A stretch of 64,000 nucleotides of DNA from a bacterium (GTDB lineage Bacteria; Verrucomicrobiota; Verrucomicrobiia; Chthoniobacterales; JAFAMB01), in NCBI GenBank assembly GCA_046727075.1, contig JBKPBY010000053.1, positions 13,078-77,077 of the forward strand. The letters run 5' to 3'. The notes beneath the pieces were generated by a model. It worked only from the letters and a program-made list of their open reading frames with translations. It had not been told where the DNA came from and did not search any database. Shown here piece by piece: positions 8,568 through 53,441 of the stretch. Numbering within the stretch: position 1 is the first letter of the stretch; the number at the start of each line of letters is the position of its first letter. The position numbers and the translations under genes are program-made.

Positions 8568-8650
8568 CAGCGCCATGGATCCCATTGGTTGGCGCTGAAT
8601 TGCCCAGCCGGGGAGGCCCAAAACGGCTTGCGTTTTGGGCCTTCCCGGCT
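8568..8650. repeat. two adjacent stem-loops inside the plus-strand oxidoreductase operon
   Basis: Hairpin 1: CAGCGCCA (8568-8575) pairs with TGGCGCTG (8590-8597). Hairpin 2: AGCCGGGGAGGCCCAAAACG (8606-8625) pairs with CGTTTTGGGCCTTCCCGGCT (8631-8650), a 20-nt arm with one mismatch and a 5-nt loop. Confidence 0.7.
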
Positions 8651-8662
8651 AAGGGCAATTCA

Positions 8663-9757
8663 ATGGAAAAACACCGCGTCGGTATTGTCGGGTTGGGGTG
8701 GCCGGGCGAACGCCATGCAGAAGCCATCGAGGCGTGCGGACTGGGCCAGCTTTACGCGATTTGTGATTTGAATGAAGAACGTCGCAAGAATTTTGCGGCG
8801 ATGTTTCCATCCGAAAAAGTGTTCGGTCAGTATGACGAAATGCTTGCGGATACCCGCTTGGAATCGGTCGTAGTCAGTCTTCCAAATTCGCTGCATTTTC
8901 CGGCGACACTTCAAGCCTTGAAGGCGGGTAAACATGTGTTGTGCGAGAAACCACCGACATTGAACGCCGGCCAGATGCGCCAGATTCAGGCCGAGGCCCA
9001 AAAGAATGGTTTGGTCTATTGTTTTGGCCGGCAAATGCGCTTTTCCGGAGCGATGCAAGCTGCTCGATCTGCAGTCGCAGCCAGGCGCCTTGGCGAGATT
9101 TATTATGCTCAAACGAAGTGGGTACGATCTCGCGGAACACCTGGTGGAATCGATGGTTGGTTTACCGATCGGTCACGAGCCGGTGGAGGCGCTCTGATCG
9201 ATATCGGAGTCCATGCTATCGATTCGGCATGGTATTTAATGGGTTGCCCAAAACCGAGAACCGTCTCTGCCCAGACCTACCAAAAGTTTCCACAACTGGT
9301 CAAAACGCCGGTCTTCGACGTTGAAGACAGCGCCTACGGGATGATTCGATTTGAAACGGGCGCATCGCTGCTATTCGAAGTAGCGTGGGCGGCAAATCTT
9401 ACCGACGACGTCCCGCGCGGCAGAGGAAAGCGAGGCCTTCGCGAGATGTTCAGCACAACTGTTTACGGACCAAAAGCGTCGCTACGAGTGGTCGACATTT
9501 CCCAATCTGATCCGGCCGAAAACATTCCGGCACTTGCGCTGTTTGAGGATCAGAATGGAGAACCGCTAAGGCAAGAACTACCATTTGAGTCCACCGATTT
9601 TCAGCACGACTTCATGGTGCAAATGAAGAATTTCCTCAAGGCAATTCAAGGTGATGAAGCGCCTATCAACAGCTCTATCCAAGCGGTGCAGCTCATGGAG
9701 ATTCTTGACGCGGTATACCAATCGAGTCTGACTGGCCGAGAGGTTAGTCTGGTCTGA
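8663..9757 (+). CDS. Gfo/Idh/MocA-family oxidoreductase
   Basis: MEKHRVGIVGLGWPGERH Rossmann start at ATG 8663. HVLCEKPPTLN motif. Confidence 0.85.
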   Translation: MEKHRVGIVGLGWPGERHAEAIEACGLGQLYAICDLNEERRKNFAAMFPSEKVFGQYDEMLADTRLESVVVSLPNSLHFPATLQALKAGKHVLCEKPPTLNAGQMRQIQAEAQKNGLVYCFGRQMRFSGAMQAARSAVAARRLGEIYYAQTKWVRSRGTPGGIDGWFTDRSRAGGGALIDIGVHAIDSAWYLMGCPKPRTVSAQTYQKFPQLVKTPVFDVEDSAYGMIRFETGASLLFEVAWAANLTDDVPRGRGKRGLREMFSTTVYGPKASLRVVDISQSDPAENIPALALFEDQNGEPLRQELPFESTDFQHDFMVQMKNFLKAIQGDEAPINSSIQAVQLMEILDAVYQSSLTGREVSLV

Positions 9758-9781
9758 GCGCGCCCTGCGCGCGCAGGTTTT
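9754..9781 (+). terminator. intrinsic-terminator-like hairpin
   Basis: CTGAGCGCGC-CCT-GCGCGCGCAG followed by GTTTT. The stem includes the TGA stop of the upstream gene. Confidence 0.6.
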
Positions 9782-9812
9782 CCGTCTTCCGTCAACCGTC
9801 TTCCGTCAACCG
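9782..9812. repeat. tandem 14-mer CCGTCTTCCGTCAA, 2.2 copies
   Basis: Perfect copies at 9782-9795 and 9796-9809. Complementary words CGGAAGACGG (9967-9976) and GGTTGACGG (9989-9997) lie about 160 nt downstream. Confidence 0.85.
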
Positions 9813-10060
9813 TTGGAATGCACTTCGGTCATGGCGCGTGCTGTGATCTGGATGGCGGCGTTACGTCGTGGAGCCATCGAGCGCCAGCTATTTCCACGAC
9901 AGCGATCCACAGAGCACCGCCCTCCAGAGCCAGGGGTGCAAGTCGTGCCACAAAGAACGGAAACCACGGAAGACGGAAAACGGAAGATGGTTGACGGTCG
10001 ACCGCCGACCGCGGGCCGCCGCCCGTTGGACGGAAACAGGAACACGAGCTATGATCCCGC

Positions 10061-16791: not shown

Positions 16792-16820
16792 TATCCTGTC
16801 CTTTCTGCGCTAATCTAAAG

Positions 16821-16860
16821 CCGACACGCCGACACGCCGATACTCCGACACGCCGATACT
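16821..16860. repeat. 8-nt periodic array CCGACACG/CCGATACT, 5 units
   Basis: CCGACACG CCGACACG CCGATACT CCGACACG CCGATACT, lying between the malic-enzyme start and the dps stop. The same word family recurs at 39815-39900 and 49559-49620. Confidence 0.9.
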
Positions 16861-16864
16861 TCAC

Positions 16865-17401
16865 TCAGTGCTGCGGCGTACCGGCCCTGGCAGTTTCGAA
16901 AAGGAACCAGGTCCGTCGCTCCGCCTCGTCGATCCAATTTTCAATCAAACTGGCTGTAGCGACATCGTGATGCTCATCACAAACGTCATGCGCTGCTCTC
17001 AATCGGGTAGCGAGCGTTTTGTTGTCTTCGCGCAGCTCAGCAATCATATCCAACGGCTCGACGTAAGCAGCGTCGTTGTCTGATACTCGCGTCATCTTGG
17101 CGATTTGCCCCACGGATCGCAGCGTCATACCGCCGATCTTGCGAACCCGTTCCGCGATTTCATCGGTCATCGCAAAGAGCTGCTCAGCTTGTTCGTCCAG
17201 CAACAGGTGGTAGTCACGGAAGTGGGGACCACTCATATGCCAGTGGAAGTTTTTTGTCTTGATATAGAGCGCAAAAACATCGGCGAGGATCGCGTTCATC
17301 GCTCCCTCTATGTCCTTTGTAGCGGCAGGCGACAAATCAGTGGGAGTGACCAGGGGAGCTTCAAGCTTTCGGAGTACAGCCTTCGATTTGTTGGCTTTCA
17401 T
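16865..17401 (-). CDS. dps: Dps-family DNA-protection/ferritin-like protein
   Basis: 178 aa. LADVFALYIKTKNFHWHMSGPHFRDYHLLLDEQ is a typical Dps ferroxidase region. Confidence 0.9.
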   Translation of the reverse strand: MKANKSKAVLRKLEAPLVTPTDLSPAATKDIEGAMNAILADVFALYIKTKNFHWHMSGPHFRDYHLLLDEQAEQLFAMTDEIAERVRKIGGMTLRSVGQIAKMTRVSDNDAAYVEPLDMIAELREDNKTLATRLRAAHDVCDEHHDVATASLIENWIDEAERRTWFLFETARAGTPQH

Positions 17402-20503: not shown

Positions 20504-20530
20504 TAGTCCGGCCTTGGCCGGACGAAGGCG
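20504..20530. repeat. REP-like element, perfect 27-mer copy 1
   Basis: TAGTCCGGCCTTGGCCGGACGAAGGCG, identical to 33765-33791 and 44680-44706. Internal stem GTCCGGCC/GGCCGGAC. Confidence 0.95.
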
Positions 20531-23817: not shown

Positions 23818-23889
<72 letters not shown>

Positions 23890-33666: not shown

Positions 33667-33736
33667 GGATTCCCTGTAGGGCGGCAGGCACTGCCGCCGA
33701 CATCTATCCGGTACCACTCCCTTGCACGTGCCTACA

Positions 33737-33791
33737 GCGCCAAACGCCAAAACCTCTCGCGCAGTAGTCCGGCCTTGGCCGGACGAAGGCG
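33737..33791. repeat. REP-like element copy 2 (extended)
   Basis: GCGCCAAACGCCAAAACCTCTCGCGCAG followed by the perfect 27-mer at 33765-33791. Confidence 0.95.
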
Positions 33792-36850: not shown

Positions 36851-36974
36851 GAACCGCAGATTTCACAGATTACGCAGATTTTATTTTGGTGGTCGCCTCC
36901 AACGATGCGGGCAAGTCCACGCGATAGACCTGAATATCAATAAAAATCTGTGTAATCCGCGAAATCTGCGGTTC
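36851..36974. repeat. MITE-like element: ~35-bp terminal inverted repeats around a 53-bp core
   Basis: GAACCGCAGATTTCACAGATTACGCAGATTTTATT (36851-36885) versus AATAAAAATCTGTGTAATCCGCGAAATCTGCGGTTC (36939-36974). Confidence 0.75.
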
Positions 36975-36989: not shown

Positions 36990-37727
36990 CTACAACGCCG
37001 CGTTGACTTGCTGAATCGCTTGCTGGACCTGTTGATAGCTCGCTTGGAAGCCTTCCATCGTTTTTTTGTCAGAGAACGAAATGCCGGCCTCTTTGCCTGG
37101 CTTCCATTTTCCGGCGTTCTTTTCCAGATAATCGGTCACACCGAGCGCAGCGTCCGCCAGCTTTGTCAGAGCATCGGACCGAGCTGCTTGTTTCGTGATT
37201 GCGTTCCTTTCGATAAACAAGTTTGTCACTTGCGATGCCATATCGTCCGACAAGCCTGCAGCTTTCAACTGTGTCGTCATATTTGCTTGGAGGCCGTTGA
37301 GTACATCCCGCCTTTTGCCGGACGCATCCTTCAATGCTTCCGCTGCCTTCTTTGCGTTGGCGACATCCTCCTTTGTTTTAATTGCGGCCAACGGCTGTAC
37401 CACCTGCGCGTCGACAGTCGTTTCGAGCGGTTTCGCAGCGGCGTCTACATCGGCCAAGTTTTTCCCCGTCTCATTGAGAGCACGAGCAACTGGAGCCTCG
37501 TCCGGCGGCAATGAATCGGGATTTGCGCTCATCAAGTTCAAATAATCCGCTGGTCCTTTCGGTTTCGGTGTAGCGGTTGGAGTCGCTTGCGCTTGGGGAG
37601 GCGGTTGTTCACTCTTGTTGCAGGCGGAGAGCAACCCGAAGAGCGCAATCAGGCAAAGCGAAGAATAGAGACCGCACACCCAAGAAGCATTACGGCGTGG
37701 TTGAGAGGATGAGATCGCATTCGACAT
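36990..37727 (-). CDS. hypothetical alpha-helical lipoprotein
   Basis: Lipobox LLSAC after a hydrophobic segment. PQAQATPTATPKPKG linker, then an Ala/Lys/Gln-rich helical body. Start taken at ATG 37727. Confidence 0.6.
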   Translation of the reverse strand: MSNAISSSQPRRNASWVCGLYSSLCLIALFGLLSACNKSEQPPPQAQATPTATPKPKGPADYLNLMSANPDSLPPDEAPVARALNETGKNLADVDAAAKPLETTVDAQVVQPLAAIKTKEDVANAKKAAEALKDASGKRRDVLNGLQANMTTQLKAAGLSDDMASQVTNLFIERNAITKQAARSDALTKLADAALGVTDYLEKNAGKWKPGKEAGISFSDKKTMEGFQASYQQVQQAIQQVNAAL

Positions 37728-37824
37728 GTCGGTAGTTCTAGCGAGATTCGCGGGCACGTCTACGGCGATTTTCTCGCGAATCCCTGTTGAGACGCGAACT
37801 CGATGCAATGATAGTGCGAGCCAC

Positions 37825-38580
37825 ATGGTTCGTTCTATCGGTTTTGGGTTGTTGGCTTGCTTGCTTTGCGGTTGTGCCACGCGGGCGCTAACATCTGTCA
37901 AAGGAATACCCGGTCACTTCAGCACAGTAATTATCGATGCCGGTCACGGCGGCAAAGACAACGGAGGGCTCGGTGGACGACGCGGCATCGGCCTTGTTAG
38001 AGAAAAAGATGTAACGCTTAGCACGGCTAAGAGAGTTCGCGCGGAGCTGCAACACGCTGGCGTGCGCACGCTGATGATCCGCGACGATGACCGTTTTGTA
38101 GAGCTCGATGACCGGGTAGCTTTTGCGAATCGCCAAGGACCAAACGCGATTCTGGTCAGCATTCATTATGATGCCACCGGGGACCGCGGCGCGAACGGGG
38201 CAAAGACCTATTTCTGGAGAGCGGATAGCCACGGACTGGCAACGCGGATCCAGGAAAACCTGGTGGCCGAGACCGGCGAAACCAACCTCGGCGTTTTGCG
38301 CCGGCGCCTTCGACTGACTCGCAACCCGGAGATTCGATCGATCCTCTGTGAATGCGCGTATCTGACGAACCCCGGTGAGGCGCAGAAAGTGACGAACGAC
38401 GCCTACCAATCCAAAATTGCCACCGGTATCGCTAGGGGCATTCTCGAACAATATCGCCTGGGTGACGCAGGCATCGCCTCGGTCCCCGAACTCATTGCGC
38501 CCATGTCCAGAGCCTCCGACAAATACGTGAGCCGCCACACAACGCACCGCCGCAAGCACCACAAAAAAGTAAAAGCGTGA
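37825..38580 (+). CDS. N-acetylmuramoyl-L-alanine amidase (Amidase_3), lipoprotein
   Basis: Lipobox LLCGC. IIDAGHGGKDNGG, SIHYDA and ECAYLTNP motifs. Start taken at ATG 37825. Confidence 0.85.
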   Translation: MVRSIGFGLLACLLCGCATRALTSVKGIPGHFSTVIIDAGHGGKDNGGLGGRRGIGLVREKDVTLSTAKRVRAELQHAGVRTLMIRDDDRFVELDDRVAFANRQGPNAILVSIHYDATGDRGANGAKTYFWRADSHGLATRIQENLVAETGETNLGVLRRRLRLTRNPEIRSILCECAYLTNPGEAQKVTNDAYQSKIATGIARGILEQYRLGDAGIASVPELIAPMSRASDKYVSRHTTHRRKHHKKVKA

Positions 38581-38801
38581 GTGTTAGTGTGAGGTGAGAA
38601 CGAAGGGGGCGATCCGGCGACTGGTGAGACGGCAAAAAGAAATATGGAATCTAACAGAAAATCGCGAAGATTTTTTCTCGTCGGCAACCGAAAACTGAAA
38701 ACCGAAAACCGAAAACGGTGAACCGCGTGGCGAAGCCGCGCGCGCTTGACTCACACCCATACTCGCACTCGCACTGCGGGAGTGCTAGATTGGCCGCTTC
38801 A

Positions 38802-39833
38802 ATGCGAAAGAGAGACGTCACGATTCACGATGTCGCCGCTCAATCCGGAGTCTCCTACCAGACGGTCTCGCGTGTGATCAATGAGATGCCCGATGTGGCT
38901 GATGCAACGCGCCAGCGGGTGACCAAAGTTCTCGATCGACTCGGCTACCGTCCCAACCTGACCGCACGGCACCTGGTGAGCCGGCGTTCAACGGTGATCG
39001 GAGTGGTTACGTTTGCCACCGGTCTCTATGGCCCGTCCCAGATTGTGCTCAATGTCGAACGAGCGGCCAGAGCAAATGGCTACAACATCATGTTCGCTGG
39101 AATACCCGAGGAAAACGTCGAAGAAATTCACCGGGCGGTCGATACCCTTTGCGCCCATCGAGTCGCCGGAATATTGATGCATCTCCCCTTGGAAATTGAT
39201 CTGCGTCGTCTTCGCGACGTCTGTAAGAGTTTGCCTGTGGTGGCCATCGACTCCGATTTCGGTTTCGAAGCGCCTTCCGTTTTTGTTCAACAGGAAAAAG
39301 CTTCGCGGATGCTGACGAAGCACCTGATCGATCTCGGCCATAAACGGATTGCTTATCTCCGAGCGCCGGTTGTCTGGCGGGCATCCCGACTGCGATATCA
39401 GGGTTGGCTTAAAGCGCTGAAAGCCGCGCGCCTTAAACCGGGGCCTTGCGCCGAAGGTGACTGGTCTTCCAAGGGCGGATTCGAAGCAACGCTTGAGCTG
39501 ATCAGACACCACAAGAACCGATTCACTGCACTTATGGTCGCCAACGATCAAATGGCGCTCGGCGCGATCCGAGCTTTTGAGGAAAACGGTCTCCAGGTGC
39601 CGAGAGATGTGTCGATTGTCGGTTTCGATGATATTCCCGAGGCGGCGTTTTTCCGGCCCCCACTGACCACTGTCAAACAGGATTTCGACGCGGTCGGCAA
39701 ACTCGGCGTACGCTGCTTAATCGACCAATTTAAAAACGAAACGGCGCTCTCAACCCAGACACACACGGTGGAACCAATTTTTTTCGAACGCGCCAGCACC
39801 GCGAAGCCGCGGCGGAAGAACGTATCGGCGTGA
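38802..39833 (+). CDS. LacI-family transcriptional regulator
   Basis: VTIHDVAAQSGVSYQTVSRVIN HTH plus a periplasmic-binding-protein-like core. The last six codons lie inside the left arm of the 39815-39900 inverted repeat. Confidence 0.9.
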   Translation: MRKRDVTIHDVAAQSGVSYQTVSRVINEMPDVADATRQRVTKVLDRLGYRPNLTARHLVSRRSTVIGVVTFATGLYGPSQIVLNVERAARANGYNIMFAGIPEENVEEIHRAVDTLCAHRVAGILMHLPLEIDLRRLRDVCKSLPVVAIDSDFGFEAPSVFVQQEKASRMLTKHLIDLGHKRIAYLRAPVVWRASRLRYQGWLKALKAARLKPGPCAEGDWSSKGGFEATLELIRHHKNRFTALMVANDQMALGAIRAFEENGLQVPRDVSIVGFDDIPEAAFFRPPLTTVKQDFDAVGKLGVRCLIDQFKNETALSTQTHTVEPIFFERASTAKPRRKNVSA

Positions 39834-39900
39834 CGGCGTGTCGGCGTACCAGCGAATACGCCCCCAGAAGCCGACACGCCGTCGCGCCGATACGTTCTTC
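39815..39900. terminator. 31-bp-arm hairpin between convergent genes (bidirectional terminator candidate)
   Basis: GAAGAACGTATCGGCGTGACGGCGTGTCGGC (39815-39845) versus GCCGACACGCCGTCGCGCCGATACGTTCTTC (39870-39900): 30 of 31 complementary, with a 24-nt loop. Confidence 0.65.
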
Positions 39901-41330: not shown

Positions 41331-41458
41331 AGTGAGTGTGAGTGCGAGTGTGAGTCTTAGTTTTAGTGGTGGAATTAGATTTAGAGTTAGAGGGCACCAT
41401 TTCATAACCAGCACTAGCACTATCATTAGCACGAATACTCCCACTCACACCCGCACTC
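41331..41458. repeat. structured spacer between the two MFS genes (GAGTG-word inverted repeat)
   Basis: AGTGAGTGTGAGTGCGAGTGTGAGT (41331-41355) versus ACTCCCACTCACACCCGCACTC (41437-41458). The right arm covers the stop and last codons (RVRV) of the upstream MFS gene. Confidence 0.7.
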
Positions 41459-42668
41459 TTTTGTCCAGGTTCGGCAGGAAGGCGGTGAGCAATCCGATTA
41501 ACGGCAAGAACGAGCAGACTGAGTAAACGAAATCGATACTTGTCCAATCCGCAAGCCTGCCCAGCGCGGCCGATCCAATTCCGGCCATGCCGAATGCGGT
41601 TCCGAAAAAGATACCGGCGATCAATCCAGTTTTGCCCGGCACAAGCTCCTGCGCGTAAACGATGATGGCCGAAAAAGCGGACGCGAGGATCACTCCAATT
41701 ATCACCACAAGAACTCCAGTCCAGAAAAGGTCTGCGTACGGCAACGCTAGAGTAAACGGCGCTACGCCCAGGATCGATGCCCAGATCACATATTTACGCC
41801 CAATCCTGTCTCCAATCGGTCCTCCAATAATTGTACCGGCAGCGACAGCGAACAAAAACAGGAACAGATAAATCTGCGCTGTCTGGATGCCGAGATGAAA
41901 TTTGTTAATCAGGTAGAAAGTGAAGTAGTTGGAGAGGCTGACCAGGTAAAAAAATTTGGAGAAGATAAGCGCGATCAAAATCGCCAGCGAAAAGACGATC
42001 CTCTGCTTCGATAACAGCGCCTGGCCGGACTTACGTTTTGCGCTCGATTTGGTCGGGATTCTATGAAGGTTTTCGCCGTACCACTTTCCGACGATCGAAA
42101 GGATGATAATTGCGACCAGGGCAACCACGGAAAACCAGGCGATACTTGGTTGTCCTCTGGGCACGATGATAAGCGCAGCCAATAATGGCCCGGCCGAAGA
42201 GCCGGCGTTCCCACCGACCTGAAAAATCGACTGGGCGAGTCCGTGCTTACCTCCTGAGGCCATGCGAGCCAGACGCGATGCTTCGGGATGAAAGATTGAC
42301 GAGCCCAGGCCCACCAATGCGGCAGAAACAAGAATGGTTGGGAAACTGCCTGCCACCGAAAGTAGAACCAGGCCGATCAGCGTGAATCCCATCCCGATTG
42401 CCAAAGAATAAGGTTTAGGTCGGTGATCGGTGTAGAGCCCGACAAATGGCTGAAAAAGCGAAGCGGTGCACTGAAACGTCAGAGTGATCAGGCCGATCTG
42501 TGTAAAGTTCAGATGAAACGAGTTCTTCAGGACTGGATATATCGCCGGAATCAACGACTGAATCGTGTCGTTAAGCAGGTGCGAAAAACTGATTGCCAAG
42601 AGAATAGCGAATACGGTGTTCTCGGCTCTATTTTGATGTTCGACTGTGTCCTGAAATTCCGTCTGCAT
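41445..42668 (-). CDS. MFS transporter, Fsr (fosmidomycin-resistance)-like
   Basis: 407 aa. SFSHLLNDTIQSLIPAIYPVLK and GLYTDHRPKPYSL are typical of the Fsr subfamily. Confidence 0.8.
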   Translation of the reverse strand: MQTEFQDTVEHQNRAENTVFAILLAISFSHLLNDTIQSLIPAIYPVLKNSFHLNFTQIGLITLTFQCTASLFQPFVGLYTDHRPKPYSLAIGMGFTLIGLVLLSVAGSFPTILVSAALVGLGSSIFHPEASRLARMASGGKHGLAQSIFQVGGNAGSSAGPLLAALIIVPRGQPSIAWFSVVALVAIIILSIVGKWYGENLHRIPTKSSAKRKSGQALLSKQRIVFSLAILIALIFSKFFYLVSLSNYFTFYLINKFHLGIQTAQIYLFLFLFAVAAGTIIGGPIGDRIGRKYVIWASILGVAPFTLALPYADLFWTGVLVVIIGVILASAFSAIIVYAQELVPGKTGLIAGIFFGTAFGMAGIGSAALGRLADWTSIDFVYSVCSFLPLIGLLTAFLPNLDKRVRV

Positions 42669-43009
42669 GGATCTGGCCGCTGTACATCGGCGGCCTTCCG
42701 CGCCATCAGTACAGGCCCCTCTCCCGGGGAATCCCGTTTTCTAAAATACCCGGGCCGATCTCCTCCACAAGAGCCCCATACCAGGACAAAACGTAGTTGT
42801 TCTATCAGAATTCGTTTGGCTTTGGACGTTCCCGCCGTCACAGAATGGCCGGGAGTTTTTAGCCCAGAACTTCGGCCTTGTGTTCGGTTTGTGTCGAAGA
42901 GCGCCGCCGAGCGCTTCACGAACCGACGTGTCCGCCATAGCTGTGGCGAAGGCGGAAAACCGATAACGGAAGACCGATAACCGTTAACCGCGGCGCTGAA
43001 AGCGCCGCG

Positions 43010-44650: not shown

Positions 44651-44717
44651 CATTGGCGAACGCGGAACCTGTCGCGCCGTAGTCCGGCCTTGGCCGGACG
44701 AAGGCGGACGCCAAACG
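44651..44717. repeat. REP-like element copy 3 (full length)
   Basis: CATTGGCGAACGCGGAACCTGTCGCGCCG, then the perfect 27-mer (44680-44706), then GACGCCAAACG. Confidence 0.95.
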
Positions 44718-44785
44718 TCTTTACCATTGACAGCCGAGCCTTTAGGCTCCACCGAAGCGCAGGTATTCCCCGTCAGCATACATAT

Positions 44786-46840
44786 ATGCCAGAGCTAGAA
44801 ACTGCCGTTTCAACTACTCCCTATGTTCCAGCAAAAAGCAGGGTCGCTGAGCTCACGATTAAATCGATTCTTTTGGGAGCATTCTTTGGACTCTTGTTTG
44901 GGGCAGCAACAGTCTATCTCGGCTTGAAGGCTGGGTTAACGATTTCGGCCTCCATCCCGGTAGCGGTTTTGGCCATATCGCTCGGACGTAAGTTCTTCAA
45001 AACGACGATCCTCGAAAACAACATCATCCAGACAACGGCTTCTGCCGGTGAATCAATCGCCGGAGGTGTGGTTTTTACCATGCCCGGGTTTTTGTTCCTT
45101 TCCAGTGGTAGCCACAGCGAGAATTTCTTTTCCTATTGGCCGATTTTTATCCTGGCGGCTATCGGCGGAATGCTCGGCACGCTGATGATGATTCCGTTAC
45201 GCCGGGCGTTGATTGTGGAAGAACACGGAACACTTCCTTATCCGGAAGGCACCGCATGTGCATCAGTTCTTATAGCAGGGGAGAAAGGCGGAGATTTTGC
45301 CCTCACAGCCTACAAGGGCTTCGGCTTCGCTCTGGTCTACGCGGCTTGCCAGAAGATTTTTGCGATCATCGCCGAAATACCCGCCTGGGTGACAGCGCAA
45401 ACGAATCGTTTTTTTCCTTCTGCAACAGTCAACGCGGATATCACGCCGGAATATATGGGCGTGGGGTATATCATCGGTCCGCGGATCGGAGGGGTACTTG
45501 TGTCCGGCGGCGTGCTGGCATGGTTAGCCTTGATCCCGTTGCTGGCGTCGCTTCTGCCCCCTGAAATCATCGCGAACGAACAGGTCAAGCTTGGCTACCT
45601 GCATGATCTTGCCTCGGCTGGTGGCAAAGGGGGCTGGAACCCGGCAACAAAAACATTTGCCGACACCGCCGCAGCCATCTACTTCGCTTACGTTCGCCAG
45701 ATCGGCGCGGGCGCAGTCGCCGCAGGTGGTTTCGTGACCCTGCTGAAAACGTTGCCAACTATCTGGTCATCTCTCGGCGCCAGCTTAGCTGCGCTGAAAA
45801 AGCGATCAGCCGGTATCGGCGAAGAACGTACCGAGGACGACCTTTCCATCCGTGTTGTCGGCTTCGGCAGCCTTGGATTGATCATTCTGATGATGCTACT
45901 CCCGCAGATTCCTGGCGACAGCATCCTCAGCAAATGCGTGCTTGGAGTACTGATCATTCTTTTTGGATTTGTATTTGTCTCCGTCTCGAGCCGGATCACC
46001 GGATTGATTGGCACCAGTTCCAATCCGATTTCCGGCATGACGATTGCCACCATCATGGGCACCTGCCTGGTATTCCTCAGTATCGGCTGGTCCGGATTCA
46101 AATATGAGCCGTTGGTGTTGGTTGTTGGCAGCATGATTTGTATCGCCGCGGCCAATGGAGGAGGGACTTCCCAGGACTTGAAGACCGGCTTCCTGGTGGG
46201 TTCTACGCCACGCTACCAGCAACTATCATTGTTCGTGGGAGCGATCGTCGCCGCGGTCGCTATCGGGCTAACTGTCAAACTACTCGATGCTCCGAGTCGG
46301 GAAATGGTCGCTCAAGGTGTTCTGCACCGGATCGGGACAAATCAGTATCCAGCACCTCAGGGGACATTGATGGCGACGCTGATTAAAGGGCTGCTCTCGT
46401 TCAATCTCGACTGGCAGTTTGTTTTGGTTGGAGCGTTTCTGGCTATCACCATGGAGCTCTGCGCCGTCAATTCGCTGTGTTTTGCCGTTGGTGCTTATCT
46501 GCCCCTTTCAACGACTCTTCCGATTTTTATCGGCAGCGTCATTCGCGGCGTGGTGGATCACCAGACCAGGAAAGTGGCGGCTTCTGCGGAGAGCGAACAA
46601 CTGAAGGCCGGCAACCTGTTTGCAACTGGCTTGGTAGCCGGTGGAGCTATAGCCGGAGTCATTGTCGCCGGTCTCATGCAGGTGCCCGGCCTCGGCGATT
46701 TCCTGCCCAAACTCAATCTGGAAAAAACGCTTACCGCCGCGCTTGGGGAAGGCGGGTATGCTCTGCTCGGTGTAGCCTTCTTCGCAGTCATGGGCATCGT
46801 TCTGTACCGAATCGGCTCCAGCAAAAAGAAGCTTACTTAG
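44786..46840 (+). CDS. OPT-family oligopeptide transporter
   Basis: About 684 aa from ATG 44786. Polytopic, with the OPT pattern (LTIKSILLGAFFG, SASIPVAVLAISLG, GTSQDLKTGFLVGSTP). Confidence 0.9.
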   Translation: MPELETAVSTTPYVPAKSRVAELTIKSILLGAFFGLLFGAATVYLGLKAGLTISASIPVAVLAISLGRKFFKTTILENNIIQTTASAGESIAGGVVFTMPGFLFLSSGSHSENFFSYWPIFILAAIGGMLGTLMMIPLRRALIVEEHGTLPYPEGTACASVLIAGEKGGDFALTAYKGFGFALVYAACQKIFAIIAEIPAWVTAQTNRFFPSATVNADITPEYMGVGYIIGPRIGGVLVSGGVLAWLALIPLLASLLPPEIIANEQVKLGYLHDLASAGGKGGWNPATKTFADTAAAIYFAYVRQIGAGAVAAGGFVTLLKTLPTIWSSLGASLAALKKRSAGIGEERTEDDLSIRVVGFGSLGLIILMMLLPQIPGDSILSKCVLGVLIILFGFVFVSVSSRITGLIGTSSNPISGMTIATIMGTCLVFLSIGWSGFKYEPLVLVVGSMICIAAANGGGTSQDLKTGFLVGSTPRYQQLSLFVGAIVAAVAIGLTVKLLDAPSREMVAQGVLHRIGTNQYPAPQGTLMATLIKGLLSFNLDWQFVLVGAFLAITMELCAVNSLCFAVGAYLPLSTTLPIFIGSVIRGVVDHQTRKVAASAESEQLKAGNLFATGLVAGGAIAGVIVAGLMQVPGLGDFLPKLNLEKTLTAALGEGGYALLGVAFFAVMGIVLYRIGSSKKKLT

Positions 46841-47288: not shown

Positions 47289-49517
47289 ATGGCTCGTAAG
47301 AAAGAATTGTCCGCATTTGATGTTCGGATCCTCGTCCTGGCCGGAATGATCCTCTCAGCCCTCCTCGGGATCGGACTCCGTCTCTGGTTCGTTCAGGTCG
47401 AGCTCAAAGACTATTACCGCAGCAGAATCCAGGGGGCATCCGAGGCCACGGTCCGGATCCCGGCGGTCCGCGGCGAAATACGGGACCGCAATGGCGTGGT
47501 CCTCGTGACGAATCGGCCAAGCTACGAAGTTGATCTTTATCTGCCTGATCTGGTCAACGGCTATAAGACGCGATACGGCCCCCCGCCTATGGTCGATTAT
47601 CGTCATAAGGACGGTAGCGGAATGCTGCACAATGAGCGCGAACCGGATATCGTCCAGATCGTCGACCAGATAGTCATGCCGCGGCTTGAAGCGATGCATC
47701 TGGCGCAACCGTATAACCCTGAAAGGTTGCGGACTCATTTCCGGACCCAGGAGCTTGTTCCATTCGCCTATGAGCAGGATCTGAAGTTTGCCACCTTCTC
47801 GAAATTTGCTGAGGAGAATGTCAATTTGCCGGGGGTACAAGTAAACGTGAGGCCGTTACGCAGATATGTATACGGTGCGTTGGCGGCCCATTTGCTCGGC
47901 TATGTCGGCGCTCCTAAAGACATCAGCAAGCTGCCCGATGTCAAAGATTTCAATTTCTATGAGCCCGAAGTCCAGGGTCGCACAAACATTGAATACACCA
48001 TGGACGAGGAGCTTCGCGGTAAGCCGGGGAAACGAATTTTGCGCAAGAACGCGAAAAACCAGTTCGAAGGTCAACCGCAGATCGTCCAACCCGTGCCCGG
48101 AGCAAATGTCTATCTGACCATTGATGCCAGGATCCAGTACATCGTAGAGCAGACGTTGCGCGCCGTTGGCCGCGCGGGTTGCGTCGTTATGGACCCGAAC
48201 AATGGGCAGGTTCTTGCGATGGCCTCGGTTCCCTCTTTTGATCCGAACAAGTTCATCCCTTCGATCTCTGCGAGCGACTGGGAGAAGGTCAAGGAGGGCG
48301 AAGCGAATCCTTTGGTCAACCGCGCGGTAAGCTCTTATGCGCCGGGCTCAACTTACAAGATCATTACGGCGCTTGCCGGACTGACCAAAGGGCTGGCCAA
48401 AGCGAGGTTTACCTGCACTGGAGGCATGACTTACGGCGACACCTACATGCATTGTTGGGGGCATCACGGAAAGCAGGATCTGGTCGAAGCGATCAAGAAC
48501 TCCTGTGACGCATATTTTTATCAATACGGCAACACAGCCGGCATCGACGCGATCGACAAAGTCGGCAACACCTTTGGGCTGGGAAAACCGACCGGAGTCG
48601 AGCTGACCAGCGAAGATCCAGGACTGCTACCTTCGCCGGATTGGCTTCAAACAAACCAAACTGAACGCTGGTCGCATGGCCAAACGGCAAACACATCAAT
48701 CGGGCAGGGGTACGTTCTGGCAAGCCCTCTGCAGATGGCGGTGGTGGCGTCAGCTGTAGCGAACGGCGGAACCGTCTATCAGCCGACTTTGATCTATCAG
48801 ACTCAACAAGCGGACGGCACAACCATAAGACGCCCTGCAAAAATCGTTGGCGATCTCAAGAGAGATAACGGGCTCACTCCAGATCTCATTGAATTGGTCC
48901 GAAAAGGAATGGACGAAGTCGTTAACGCTGATGACGGGACCGGGAAGAACGCCGCGGTCGACAATATCGAAGTAGCAGGCAAAACCGGTACCGCTCAATT
49001 CATGCGGAACGGCATAAAGGATGATCATACCTGGTTTGTTGCCTTTGCGCCGTACAAGAATCCGAAGATCGCGTTGGCCGTCATGGTCGAAGGTGGAAAA
49101 TCGGGTGGGGGAGTTGCAGCACCGATCGCAGCCGAACTAATCGAGAAGATCATGGCTCTCGACAAAGGCTACGATCCTGGTCTCAAACCTTTGGAACCGG
49201 CCATTGGGAACTTCAAGCTGGTCAAATCGGTCAGCTTCAACAACGGAAACGCGCTGCCTCAGCTAGCCTCTGCAGATGAAACCGATGAAGATGTGGCATC
49301 TGCCGGCCACGAAAACGGTTCAAGAAGCGGAGTCCGATCCGACAGGGCGGAACCAGATATCAGGCCGGATATACAACACGAAACACAACGGCGCGCTCGC
49401 GTTGCGCAAGCTCAACCCCCGCCCCAGCGCCACAGCTTCTTCGATTTCTTCAGGAGAAAACCTCAGCCACAGCCAACACCAGGCCAGCAGAAGAAAAAGC
49501 ATTTCTTGTTCTTCTGA
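47289..49517 (+). CDS. mrdA: penicillin-binding protein 2 (elongasome transpeptidase) with a long disordered C-terminal tail
   Basis: N-terminal TM anchor. STYK (SxxK), SCD, KTGTA. The last ~120 aa are low-complexity and basic. Confidence 0.9.
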   Translation: MARKKELSAFDVRILVLAGMILSALLGIGLRLWFVQVELKDYYRSRIQGASEATVRIPAVRGEIRDRNGVVLVTNRPSYEVDLYLPDLVNGYKTRYGPPPMVDYRHKDGSGMLHNEREPDIVQIVDQIVMPRLEAMHLAQPYNPERLRTHFRTQELVPFAYEQDLKFATFSKFAEENVNLPGVQVNVRPLRRYVYGALAAHLLGYVGAPKDISKLPDVKDFNFYEPEVQGRTNIEYTMDEELRGKPGKRILRKNAKNQFEGQPQIVQPVPGANVYLTIDARIQYIVEQTLRAVGRAGCVVMDPNNGQVLAMASVPSFDPNKFIPSISASDWEKVKEGEANPLVNRAVSSYAPGSTYKIITALAGLTKGLAKARFTCTGGMTYGDTYMHCWGHHGKQDLVEAIKNSCDAYFYQYGNTAGIDAIDKVGNTFGLGKPTGVELTSEDPGLLPSPDWLQTNQTERWSHGQTANTSIGQGYVLASPLQMAVVASAVANGGTVYQPTLIYQTQQADGTTIRRPAKIVGDLKRDNGLTPDLIELVRKGMDEVVNADDGTGKNAAVDNIEVAGKTGTAQFMRNGIKDDHTWFVAFAPYKNPKIALAVMVEGGKSGGGVAAPIAAELIEKIMALDKGYDPGLKPLEPAIGNFKLVKSVSFNNGNALPQLASADETDEDVASAGHENGSRSGVRSDRAEPDIRPDIQHETQRRARVAQAQPPPQRHSFFDFFRRKPQPQPTPGQQKKKHFLFF

Positions 49518-49558
49518 CGCTGTAGGGCGGCGTTCGCCGCTTTCGTATCGGCGTGTGA

Positions 49559-49620
49559 GCGTGACGGCGTATCGGCGTTTTTGGAAATCGAGCGCTCGAT
49601 CACGCCGTTACGCCGACACG
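49559..49620. terminator. nested hairpin between convergent mrdA and the LysR gene
   Basis: GCGTGACGGCGTATCGGCG (49559-49577) pairs with CGCCGTTACGCCGACACG (49603-49620), 16 of 18. The perfect palindrome ATCGAGCGCTCGAT (49587-49600) sits in the loop. Confidence 0.55.
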
Positions 49621-50483
49621 TCTCTACCCATCTCGTCCATCAGCGCATTCAATGCCGCTGACCGCCACCCTCGGCGCCAGATCAACATCACTTTCGCTTT
49701 CGCAATTGCCGATGGCAGCCTGCAAACGCTCACATCGTTCAGTGCCCGCAACGCCTGAAGTACAGATCGCGGAACAAGGGCCACTCCGGTTCCGGCCGCG
49801 ACACAAGCAACAATCGCGTGATAGGACGCAAACTCCAGAACCCGCTCGGGTACGATCTTTCCCTGATAAAGCCAGTTCTCCAACACGCGCCGATAAGCGC
49901 AGCCAGACGAGAATGCGATGATGGTTCGTTGCCCGATCTCCTGAGCTTTCGCCGTTTTCGGCAAATTCTTCGGCCCGATTAGAACAAGCTCTTCATCAAA
50001 TGCCGGTCGCATCTCGAGTTGATCCGTGATGAACGGTTGGGCGACGAACGCGGCTTCAATTTCGAAATCAAGTACCTTCCCAATCAGCGCGTCGGTTGTG
50101 CCTGTCACAAGATCGACTTGTACCTCGGGATGATCCCGATGGAACCGTGACAGGACCGGCGGGAGACCTGTCGCCGCAACGCTTTCGATTGTGCCCATCC
50201 GAAAAACTCCATGCGGTCTCCCGTTTCGTAACGCCGCCTCGGCCTCGGTGGAAAGACGAAGCAAACGCTCGGCATAACCCAGAAGCAACTTGCCTTCGGG
50301 CGAGAGTGTCAGTTTGCGTTTCCGGCGATGGAACAGTTCGACGCCTAAACGCTCTTCCAGCTGTTTAACCCGGGTCGTTACACTCGATTGAACTCGGTTC
50401 AATCGCGCAGCGGCTTTTGTGATACCACCATGTTCGGCCACCGCTCGAAAGATCTGAAGCGCTTCCAAATCGAGCGTTCTCAT
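49608..50483 (-). CDS. LysR-family transcriptional regulator
   Basis: 291 aa. LEALQIFRAVAEHGGITKAAARLNRVQSSVTTRVKQLE HTH. Divergent from the MFS gene. Confidence 0.9.
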   Translation of the reverse strand: MRTLDLEALQIFRAVAEHGGITKAAARLNRVQSSVTTRVKQLEERLGVELFHRRKRKLTLSPEGKLLLGYAERLLRLSTEAEAALRNGRPHGVFRMGTIESVAATGLPPVLSRFHRDHPEVQVDLVTGTTDALIGKVLDFEIEAAFVAQPFITDQLEMRPAFDEELVLIGPKNLPKTAKAQEIGQRTIIAFSSGCAYRRVLENWLYQGKIVPERVLEFASYHAIVACVAAGTGVALVPRSVLQALRALNDVSVCRLPSAIAKAKVMLIWRRGWRSAALNALMDEMGRDVSA

Positions 50484-50520: not shown

Positions 50521-51819
50521 ATGTATGTGCGGGCTGAGTATTCGCGGGTGACTCAAACCTCAAAATGGGACACGCCACCGGGTGACACCGCAACCGCGCT
50601 AACAGCCCGTGTCGCGCCGGCATGCCCAACGAAGCCACGACGGAGTTGGAAACCTTGGCGAAGGCGGAATCCAGTTTTTGGCGCTATCGCTGGCCTGATC
50701 GCACTGGCTGCAGCGATGGGGATCGGCCGTTTCGCGTTTACACCGGTGCTGCCAATGATGCAGGCCGATGCCGGTGTCACCATCGCCGCCGGCGCTTGGT
50801 TGGCTTCGGCGAATTACATCGGTTATTTTATTGGCTCGCTTTCCGCACTGGTTCTGCGGGTCCAGCCCGCGACAGCAATCCGTACCGGTCTTGCAGTAAT
50901 CGGCATCAGCACGTTGGGGATGGGATTCCAGCATGATGTCGCGTTTTGGGCCCTGCTGCGTGCGCTAGCCGGAATTGGAAGCGCTCTGGTTTTGATCTTT
51001 GTTTTCGCGTGGAGCGCTGATCAGTTCGCTCATCACCGGCATCATTGGTTCAGTGGTATTGTTTTCGCAGGAACCGGAGTCGGAGTTGCCATTTCCGGTG
51101 GACTCTGCCTCTGGCTGGGGCGGGCGAATGCTAACTCCGATACCGCCTGGATTCTCCTCGGAATCCTCTCTAGTGCCTTCGCCATTATCGTCTGGTTCGC
51201 GTTCGGCACAGATGGCGCTTCGAAAACAGTCCCGGAATCTGGAGGAACACTGTGGAGCCTCGAATCGCTACGGCTCATCGGATGTTATGGAGTATTCGGC
51301 TACGGTTATATCATCCCGGCCACATTCCTGCCTGTTATGGCGCGTGCGATCATTCCTGATCCCGCACTTTTTGGTTGGGCATGGCCGATTTTTGGTTCCG
51401 CGGCTGTGATATCCACTTTCTTAACCGCACGGTTCGCCCGCCGGTTCACTCATCGCACTATTTGGATTGGCGCCCATTTTGTCATGGCTGTAGGAATCTT
51501 TCTCCCGGCGCTTTTGCCCACGCTTTCCGCTATCCTGATCGCGGCCATCCTGGTTGGAGGCACATTCATGGTCGTTCCAATGGCGGCGATGCAGGAAGCG
51601 CGCTCGATTGCCGGCGCAAAACATTCAGCAGTCCTAATTGCTGCGATGACTTCCGCATTCGCACTAGGCCAGATTATCGGCCCGATTACCGTCGGTTGGC
51701 TGGTCGGCCCCCAAGGCACCAACCTCTCGGCCTCTCTCTATATTGCCGGCGGACTCTTAGTTTTTTCGGCCCTCGTCCTGATCAAGGGGCGAAAGCCGCG
51801 AATCAAAATAGCCTCCTAG
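50521..51819 (+). CDS. MFS transporter, YbfB/YjiJ-like (start codon uncertain)
   Basis: GIGRFAFTPVLPMM motif and 12 TM helices. The first ~50 codons are Arg-rich and contain a REP half-site (CTTGGCGAAGGCGGA), so the true start may be downstream of ATG 50521. Confidence 0.8.
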   Translation: MYVRAEYSRVTQTSKWDTPPGDTATALTARVAPACPTKPRRSWKPWRRRNPVFGAIAGLIALAAAMGIGRFAFTPVLPMMQADAGVTIAAGAWLASANYIGYFIGSLSALVLRVQPATAIRTGLAVIGISTLGMGFQHDVAFWALLRALAGIGSALVLIFVFAWSADQFAHHRHHWFSGIVFAGTGVGVAISGGLCLWLGRANANSDTAWILLGILSSAFAIIVWFAFGTDGASKTVPESGGTLWSLESLRLIGCYGVFGYGYIIPATFLPVMARAIIPDPALFGWAWPIFGSAAVISTFLTARFARRFTHRTIWIGAHFVMAVGIFLPALLPTLSAILIAAILVGGTFMVVPMAAMQEARSIAGAKHSAVLIAAMTSAFALGQIIGPITVGWLVGPQGTNLSASLYIAGGLLVFSALVLIKGRKPRIKIAS

Positions 51820-51867
51820 GGCTACGCTTTCGCTTCGCCCTCTAGGCTATTTTGATTCGCGGCTTCC
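51791..51867. repeat. 23-bp-arm hairpin enclosing the MFS stop codon
   Basis: GAAAGCCGCGAATCAAAATAGCC (51791-51813) versus GGCTATTTTGATTCGCGGCTTCC (51845-51867), 22 of 23 complementary. The TAG stop at 51817-51819 lies in the loop. Confidence 0.85.
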
Positions 51868-51908
51868 GCCGCTTGCTGACCCCTGGCACCCACACTCATC
51901 GCTCCTCC

Positions 51909-53254: not shown

Positions 53255-53441
53255 TCTTCCGTTCCCAGCATTCAGCCGCCTGCGGGAACGATTTTCGGTT
53301 ATCGGTTTTCCGTTTTCGGTTCTCGCGAATGCGAGTGTTGGTGTGTGTGCGAGTAAGAATCTCGCCGCCCTCGCCCCCCCGCTTTTCGTATTCAGTTCCC
53401 GCTCGATCCCGTTCGATCCCGCTCGTTCAGCCCTTTCATGG

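Follow-up and report, generated by a model that had tools for sequence, protein, structure and literature searches.

The 64,000-nucleotide stretch of DNA analysed here (hereafter, the window) spans positions 13,078 to 77,077 of contig JBKPBY010000053.1 (assembly GCA_046727075.1) and comes from a bacterium of the order Chthoniobacterales (Verrucomicrobiota). Within it, a gene for a LacI-family regulator and a gene for an MFS transporter converge on a 65-bp gap that is filled entirely by an 86-bp palindrome (39815-39900), the strongest inverted repeat that a repeat search detected in the whole window. A preceding examination of the letters and open reading frames (ORFs), made without database searches (the sequence-only reading), had placed the arms at 39815-39845 and 39870-39900, and this is where they lie: each arm is 31 nt long, 30 of the 31 positions (97%) are complementary, and 24 nt separate them. 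The same examination correctly located the end of the LacI gene in the left arm, which holds the last base of an R codon and then AAG AAC GTA TCG GCG TGA (K N V S A stop), and the contact between the right arm and the MFS stop codon (TGA at 39901-39899), two bases of which the arm overlaps. Its observation that the words of the arms recur elsewhere in the window also holds, given that GTATCGGCGTGTCGGC, with up to 3 mismatches allowed, occurs 13 times against an expectation of 0.9, at the three loci that it had named (Table 1).

Each arm is composed of a purine-rich leader of 7 nt (GAAGAAC) and, behind it, three octamers in tandem that fit GTRWCGGC, and the units of the right array follow the same AT/GA/GT order of variants as those of the left. 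The left array codes for V S A, and the GTGA of its second unit provides the LacI TGA. A hairpin is predicted on both strands: the plus-strand RNA folds at -75.1 kcal/mol (z -9.0, with none of 200 shuffles as good), in line with the sequence-only reading, and the minus-strand RNA, with one mismatch, at -73.3 kcal/mol (z -7.75). The sole mismatch between the arms becomes a G.U pair in the plus-strand RNA, which results in an uninterrupted 31-bp stem. Three JGI metagenome contigs (L126-L128) encode an identical LacI protein and are identical over the repeat region; because these three independent assemblies match exactly, the inverted repeat is real and an assembly artefact is ruled out. A fourth contig, L129 (ENA k133_298016), ends at its position 1487, within the loop of the hairpin, an indication that de Bruijn assemblies are broken by the inverted repeat.

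Table 1. Features of the LacI/MFS locus and the other octamer-repeat sites of the window
Feature	Position	Strand	Basis or remark
LacI/PurR-family regulator, coding sequence, 343 aa	38802..39833	+	homologues of 343 aa with PF00356/PF13377; likely start ATG 38802, ORF finder begins at GTG 38718
Left leader GAAGAAC, variant of the family leader GGGGAAAC, overlapping LacI codons (R)KN	39815..39821	+	leader consensus from 58 arrays
Left array, three octamers GTATCGGC GTGACGGC GTGTCGGC	39822..39845	+	sequence, repeat searches
Degenerate fourth left unit GTACCAGC	39846..39853	+	
Loop/linker, 24 nt, GTACCAGCGAATACGCCCCCAGAA, with degenerate unit remnants	39846..39869	.	
Right array, minus-strand reading GTATCGGC GCGACGGC GTGTCGGC	39870..39893	-	
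Right leader GAAGAAC (minus-strand reading), directly after the MFS stop, overlapping two TGA bases	39894..39900	-	
DHA2/EmrB-type MFS transporter, coding sequence, 476 aa	39899..41329	-	C-terminus conserved in homologues, not repeat-derived
Single five-unit family array, sense, 5 nt past the stop of ORF 16865-17401 (-)	16820..16859	-	no stable fold alone (z 0.19)
Second inverted pair: four units (+) at 49545-49576, two units (-) at 49604-49619	49545..49619	+/-	-61.6 kcal/mol, z -4.2
Sites of GTATCGGCGTGTCGGC, among them	16820-16859; 39822-39845; 39870-39893; 49545-49576; 49604-49627		word search, at most 3 mismatches

The palindrome belongs to an interspersed repeat specific to the Chthoniobacterales clade, of which it is the minimal inverted pair. 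The module of this family comprises a purine-rich leader (consensus GGGGAAAC) and a run of tandem GTRTCGGC octamers; it occurs alone or, as an inverted pair, on either side of a linker. A scan with three tandem units as the query, against one genome per species, detected at least 119 loci; among the matches listed, 38 of 119 come from 14 soil metagenome-assembled genomes (MAGs) labelled Chthoniobacterales, Verrucomicrobiae or Udaeobacter, and the rest are scattered single matches, mostly in high-GC genomes such as those of Streptomyces. A separate metagenome scan added 120 family loci, and the source names of the homologues of the window LacI and MFS proteins are likewise Chthoniobacterales or Verrucomicrobia. 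In 58 arrays, GTGTCGGC was counted 146 times and GTATCGGC 111 times, next to rare variants such as GTGACGGC; six of the eight octamer positions are invariant and two are variable, and the arrays range from 3 to 51 units and end in GT. The leader consensus in these arrays is G G G G A A A C at positions -8 to -1, with C at -1 in 43 of the 58 and almost no T from -8 to -4, and the leader is found again in the metagenome set, with C at -1 in 120 of the arrays scored there. Because the same leader recurs across the family arrays, the outer GAAGAAC/GTTCTTC of the window palindrome is the family leader on each side. Tandem Repeats Finder assigns the octamer arrays a period of 8, and the window carries five of them at three loci. 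Seven single arrays fold no better than their shuffled versions (z from -1.45 to +0.57).

No Rfam family matches the octamer repeat at the gathering score, the sub-threshold matches being generic long-hairpin ones to miRNA precursor models; the only match at that score in the window is a tRNA gene (23818-23889, minus strand, 69.3 bits). A literature search for the unit sequence and for Udaeobacter repeats returned no description of the family, which apparently is undescribed so far. The longest arrays, with 51 and 31 units (L037 2544-2951 and L014 3843-4090; one long-read MAG, CAWBKA01), show that the repeat can expand like a minisatellite, and their antisense reading contains no stop codons and yields spurious ORFs. 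Three simple accounts of the module were discarded. The right arm was not copied from the LacI coding sequence, given that GRRAAC is the family leader at dozens of unrelated sites. The leader, which resembles a Shine-Dalgarno sequence, does not head a small ORF beginning with GTG, about half of the first units being GTA. Nor is there support for a stop codon carried by the element itself: a stop triplet lies at -14 to -7 in 71 of 212 arrays and at the control offset in 62 of 212.

The arrays follow a strict rule of position and orientation. In the MAG loci and the window, 15 arrays start 5-11 nt after the stop codon of an ORF of at least 150 aa in the sense orientation and none in the antisense one (p 6e-5); the independent metagenome set gives 25 sense arrays and 1 antisense array near stops (p 8e-7), and in both sets combined 40 arrays located 2-15 nt after a stop are sense and 1 is antisense. 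Six more arrays of the MAG loci and the window overlap the stop codon, and stops lie inside arrays in the window and in the loci L011, L104, L085 and L031. In long intergenic regions, too, the array keeps close to the stop of its own gene; in L068, for example, it lies 8 nt from that stop and 206 nt from the next gene. In the window, the module marks 5 of the 51 ORFs, approximately one gene in ten.

Inverted pairs are a unit of the family in their own right. Their internal order is nearly fixed, with (GTRTCGGC)n preceding (GCCGAYAC)n in 34 cases and following it in 1. Among 45 evaluable pairs, only 8 are situated between convergent gene ends, a single gene end accompanies 21, and for 16 there is none within 60 nt; the notion that each of two convergent genes owns one array is weakened accordingly, 37 of the 45 pairs not being flanked by two gene ends. 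Several subfamilies possess conserved cores between the arms, of 41, 70 and 79 nt, the last of which gives 18 BLAST matches in 15 loci, and the inverted repeat can run 30 nt outward past the leader. Long foldbacks are predicted at other pairs as well: -181 kcal/mol at L036 (z -17.8), -175 at L017 (z -9.4) and -212 at L011 (z -11). The 79-nt core (GTTTGCAAAGCATCATCAACTCCGTCGAGACC...CTTCCCCAGAC), which occurs in either orientation, is surrounded by inverted octamer arrays at L183 (5878-5956), L218 (3765-3843), L235 (three copies), L159 (two copies), L051 (754-833) and other loci, and may correspond to a small RNA or to a mobile-element core. None of the three cores is present in the window, and in particular the linker of the palindrome (39846-39869) does not match the 79-nt core. 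ORF 47289-49517 (+) and ORF 49608-50483 (-) converge on the second pair of the window. Small hairpins headed by TGTAGGGCGGC are found at 33675 and, a short way upstream of the octamer array at 49545, at 49521.

The amidase-LacI / MFS-MFS gene order is common to four lineages, in all of which LacI ends in a tail encoded by the array: RRKNVSA in the window type (L126-L128) and in the L001 type (L001-L004; LacI 96% identical to that of the window), GRKKVSA in the L130 type (L130-L132; 94%) and RRKIVTA in the L133 type (L133; 90%). In each case, the first unit (GTN TCG/ACG GC) codes for V-S/T-A, and the GTGA or GTAG that follows provides the stop codon. Homologues with at most 71% identity have other downstream genes and end in ...ERxSTAxP plus a variable basic tail, and one such homologue, 70% identical, has no array after its stop. 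Alignment of LacI orthologues had been proposed by the sequence-only reading as a check of whether the tail is lineage-specific, and it is: among the best 120 homologues, the V[ST]A end occurs only in the 96%-identical cluster. The accompanying claim that a hairpin rewrote the C-terminus stands as regards the repeat origin of the tail and not as regards its source; because lineages without a stable hairpin share V(S/T)A-stop, it was the array, rather than the hairpin, that rewrote it. Accordingly, what that reading had named as evidence against itself, namely the same C-terminal residues in orthologues without the repeat, is found in part, the tail being kept without a stable hairpin in two lineages (L001 and L133) where the arrays are present. 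Of the six codons said to be encoded by the repeat, the last five and the final base of the first lie within it; only about four residues (N-V-S-A) are new, the preceding RRK resembling the basic tails of other homologues, and this region is hypervariable anyway. The repeat has left the C-terminus of the MFS protein, AAVAVANGRS, unaffected, and this end is conserved in homologues with as little as 70% identity. In L001 (7090-7115) and likewise in L002-L004, the MFS gene carries at its 3' end, adjoining the decayed right array, a stretch of 12 nt twice in tandem (AACTCCTCCCGT x2), which adds four residues (GRSYGRS; 480 vs 476 aa). An initial metagenome scan with the conserved 3' end of the LacI gene gave no match.

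Arrays are present on both sides of the gap in all four syntenic lineages, and no empty site was found among them; the MFS proteins of the lineages that keep arrays at this site are 85-86% identical to that of the window. The stability of the hairpin varies widely, with z of -9.0 in the window, -2.9 in the L130 type, -0.67 in the L133 type and -0.68 in the L001 type. In the L001 type, the LacI side carries four clean units, the array on the MFS side is decayed, and an inverted-repeat search finds nothing at the locus. The second pair of the window presents the reverse situation: at the orthologous site, the relative L031 shows clean units, 4+4 in number (-85.8 kcal/mol), and the window copy is the more decayed one (-61.6 kcal/mol). 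The arms of the window palindrome mirror each other even in the rare GA variant of the middle unit (AT/GA/GT in both arms; GTGA vs GCGA). We infer that the perfect pairing arose by a recent homogenisation of the arms, for example, through template switching at a quasipalindrome, a process for which PMC8794818 and PMC8604942 offer a precedent; this is read from four lineages only, at a site chosen for its perfection, and the perfect arms may also have arisen by chance.

Taken together, the best explanation of the locus, to which we assign a probability of about 0.7, is that the palindrome is an inverted pair of the gene-end octamer module, that the LacI tail derives from the array, and that the stem is lineage-specific. 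The structural and evolutionary account of the repeat is quite probably right; that the hairpin has a real effect on transcript ends can be put forward only tentatively. The left end of the pair took the place of the final LacI codons, V-S-A-stop being given by the first unit together with the GTGA of the second, and the right leader abuts the MFS stop. The pair was probably present already in the common ancestor of the four syntenic lineages, with later drift and fast change of unit number and sequence, near-complete complementarity of the arms being confined to the lineage of the window. Transcripts that cross the gap would fold into the 31-bp stem once ribosomes leave. The stem most likely would act as a bidirectional barrier or a stabiliser of 3' ends, in the manner of dimers of repetitive extragenic palindromic (REP) sequences or bacterial interspersed mosaic elements (BIME), rather than as a canonical intrinsic terminator; it may block 3' exonucleases and convergent read-through, as proposed for such dimers (PMC3733652).

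The claim of the sequence-only reading that the hairpin had been recruited as a shared terminator is not borne out, given the weak U-tract, the LacI stop within the stem, the lack of conservation and the unmirrored arms of the family. By energy, a stable G+C-rich stem-loop, the first feature of an intrinsic terminator, is present, and its 31-bp stem and 24-nt loop are far above the usual size; a terminator consensus scan does not list the 39815-39900 site. The LacI TGA occupies positions 17-19 of the left-arm stem and the MFS TGA overlaps the base of the stem, so that the hairpin is not outside the ORFs. Because the LacI stop lies within the stem, the terminating ribosome must open the whole left arm. 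Several observations count against a role of the stem in the formation of transcript ends, and some of them against the broader account. The tail after the full stem contains 3/8 T on the plus strand (AACTTCTC) and 0/8 on the minus strand (CGCCGCGG), compared with at least 5/8 for a proper tract, and even when the A/U-rich outer 7 bp count as the tail (GTTCTTCA / GTTCTTCC), each strand has 4/8. Coupled translation would oppose the formation of the hairpin, the LacI stop being inside the stem, and two of the four close lineages have lost any stable hairpin without visible consequence. Across 44 pairs of the family, the variable dinucleotides of the two arms agree at 0.38, against 0.39 for shuffled partners (p 0.56); this result argues against selection for perfect stems throughout the family, which accordingly finds no support, and because the arms do not mirror each other, the near-perfect stem of the window is a lineage-specific state. 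Furthermore, the pair, which all four lineages carry, may have arrived as one unit or as two arrays, and the 40 to 1 count of sense arrays rests, in the related loci, on crude ORF calls and not on a gene finder.

The chief alternative to a role at transcript ends is that the hairpin is a neutral by-product of two drifting arrays: slippage-prone repeats would be tolerated in intergenic DNA, and the near-perfect stem would be a chance or template-switch state without function. The range of 3 to 51 units, the rapid turnover between lineages with 90-96% identical LacI proteins, the absence of the hairpin in two lineages and the unmirrored arms across the family all fit this explanation. We nevertheless regard it as unlikely, because neutral drift would not account for the sense orientation near stops in two independent data sets, the conserved leader, the persistence of arrays at the same site across lineages with MFS proteins 85-86% identical to that of the window, or the enrichment of structured RNA at the gene ends of the window, where z is below -3 in 9 of 48 ends and in 1 of 48 gene interiors (Mann-Whitney p 0.013). 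Long hairpins at 3' ends recur in the window and, together with the position rule specific to the transcribed strand, speak for some role at gene ends. This enrichment of structured RNA does not extend to canonical hairpin plus U-tract sites, which in the window are not in excess over shuffles (9 vs 6.1, 32 vs 22.9, 25 vs 24.5 and 27 vs 23.8).

Another origin, which we consider distinctly improbable, is the insertion of a pre-formed palindromic mobile element, similar to a miniature inverted-repeat transposable element (MITE) or a REPIN, that overwrote the LacI C-terminus and was kept as a shared bidirectional terminator. Such an element would explain why inverted pairs are common even with one gene end or none, why subfamilies have conserved cores between the arms and an inverted repeat that extends beyond the arrays, and why a very stable stem goes together with a lineage-specific LacI tail. 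However, the inspected ends show no visible target-site duplication, a search of the locus in the relatives gave no empty site, the window copy lacks a conserved core, the relatives keep the tail without the hairpin, which is unmaintained in 2 of the 4 lineages, there is no proper U-tract, and the arms of the family do not co-vary. The remaining explanation is that the arrays are platforms for protein binding, as RNA in the 3' untranslated region or as DNA at gene ends, the window hairpin being incidental or even antagonistic by masking the sites. The pattern of six invariant positions with two tolerated variable ones, the strand specificity of the position rule relative to transcription, the unstructured and hence accessible single arrays and the restriction of the family to one clade are all compatible with this, but there is little chance that it is correct: no candidate protein was identified, the 8-nt period is out of phase with the DNA helix, and inverted pairs, which would sequester the sites in RNA, are very common. 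A LacI operator was rejected on inspection, given the 31-nt arms with a 24-nt gap and the absence of a half-site resembling the operator consensus TGNAANCGNTTNCA. With respect to the family as a whole, it is conceivable, if on the doubtful side, that GGGGAAAC(GTRTCGGC)n is an undescribed, transcribed-strand-specific gene-end module of Udaeobacter-type Chthoniobacterales that functions as a signal at 3' ends, be it for termination, for processing or as a platform for protein binding, or else is a mobile element that targets the first few bases after stop codons.

The window and the related loci contain other repeats of comparable architecture. A second hairpin that reaches into the C-terminal codons of a gene, unrelated in sequence to the octamer family, lies at 51783-51875: this 32-nt inverted repeat has 94% complementarity and a loop of 29 nt (-64.8 kcal/mol, z -9.2), and its left arm is within the last 12 codons of ORF 50521-51819. 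An inverted repeat at 36851-36974, with arms of tandem 9-mers (CAGATTTCA-like) and GAACCG...CGGTTC ends (-64.8 kcal/mol, z -8.0), begins 16 nt past the stop of the minus-strand ORF 36990-37901, and arms made of GTGAGT hexamers lie between two MFS genes at 41336-41450, from the stop of ORF 41445-42668 (z -4.2). In L036 (3575-3870), a pair of octamer arrays is enclosed by outer arms made of the same (GTGAGT)n arrays, and the resulting stem is about 95 bp long. In this clade, gene-end hairpins are evidently built from several families of short-unit repeats.

Heptamer arrays of the TTCCGTC / ACGGAAG type at 9777-9813 and 9966-10009 are inverted relative to each other, approximately 160-175 nt apart, and follow ORF 8585-9757; a canonical-looking small terminator (CCTGCGCGCGCAGG + TTTT) precedes them at 9764-9781. 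Arrays of the AACCGAA type represent another dispersed short-unit family, with copies at 38686-38716, directly upstream of the LacI gene, at 42953-42990 and, in the opposite orientation, at 53292-53325. A REP-like palindromic 20-mer, TCGTCCGGCCAAGGCCGGAC, has three exact copies, all on the minus strand (20506-20525, 33767-33786 and 44682-44701), against an expectation of 0.01; the first two lie in gaps between convergent ORFs, and the third overlaps the called start of ORF 44690-46840.

Udaeobacter-type Chthoniobacterales rank with the most abundant bacteria of soils and remain almost entirely uncultured; to our knowledge, nothing is known of their transcript ends. A repeat that appears in the sense orientation only, 2-15 nt after stops and with a conserved leader, provides a concrete handle on gene-end biology in the Chthoniobacterales, and this family-level rule of position is more interesting than the single locus. 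The message of the LacI/MFS locus is more modest: the LacI tail is repeat-derived and the striking stem is a recent, unconserved state. The locus indicates, in addition, that octamer repeats can replace the final codons of proteins with no evident damage. The family is also a hazard for assembly, with one contig breaking in the hairpin loop and arrays of up to 51 units.

Among known systems, integron attC sites (RYYYAAC ... GTTRRRY) share with the ends of the palindrome, GAAGAAC/GTTCTTC (RRRRAAC / GTTYYYY), the AAC/GTT agreement only, and the octamer copies are dispersed beside housekeeping genes, with no cassette array. Of the hallmarks of MITEs, a target-site duplication is not apparent, no direct repeat being evident at 17 elements inspected, whose true ends are undefined given that the repeat extends outward, and presence/absence polymorphism is lacking among the four syntenic lineages, all of which carry the arrays. 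Bidirectional intrinsic terminators resemble the palindrome in that one hairpin serves two convergent genes and in the pairable A-rich 5' and U-rich 3' flanks (GAAGAAC / GUUCUUC). They differ in size, with stems of about 5-14 bp and loops of 3-8 nt compared with 31 bp and 24 nt, and here the U-tract reaches at most 4/8, both stops are in the stem and the hairpin is not conserved in close relatives. The short tandemly repeated repetitive (STRR) heptamers of cyanobacteria are lineage-specific intergenic tandem arrays of 7-8-nt units, present at many loci in variable copy number. The octamer family answers this description in unit length, tandem and intergenic arrangement, lineage specificity and variable copy number, and differs in phylum and unit sequence; we know of no report of a conserved leader, a sense-after-stop rule or frequent inverted pairing for STRR.

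Correction of quasipalindromes (PMC8794818, PMC8604942, PMC5941160) parallels the state of the locus, an imperfect repeat in the relatives and a near-perfect one in a single lineage, and would account for the origin of the perfect arms and not for their role. The closest analogue of the octamer family is found in the REP/BIME and REPIN sequences (PMC3733652). Their monomer differs from the octamer module in being an imperfect palindrome of 20-40 bp, whereas that of the octamer family is a non-palindromic tandem array behind a purine-rich leader, of highly variable unit number (3-51), the single copies of which do not fold. Nor is there a GTAG or CGTC tag: the leader is GGGGAAAC, and upstream of 212 arrays GTAG shows no enrichment at any offset. 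In other respects the correspondence is extensive: like the octamer family, REP/BIME sequences are short, high-copy, clade-specific and extragenic, are located mostly downstream of ORFs, between unidirectional or convergent genes, and may overlap coding ends and donate the stop codon (PMC3733652). They also occur as single copies or as opposed dimers that fold into larger hairpins, and form mosaics with conserved linkers, compared with which the window copy has merely an unconserved 24-nt linker; and for them, too, a role in the protection of mRNA 3' ends or in termination has been proposed (PMC3733652).

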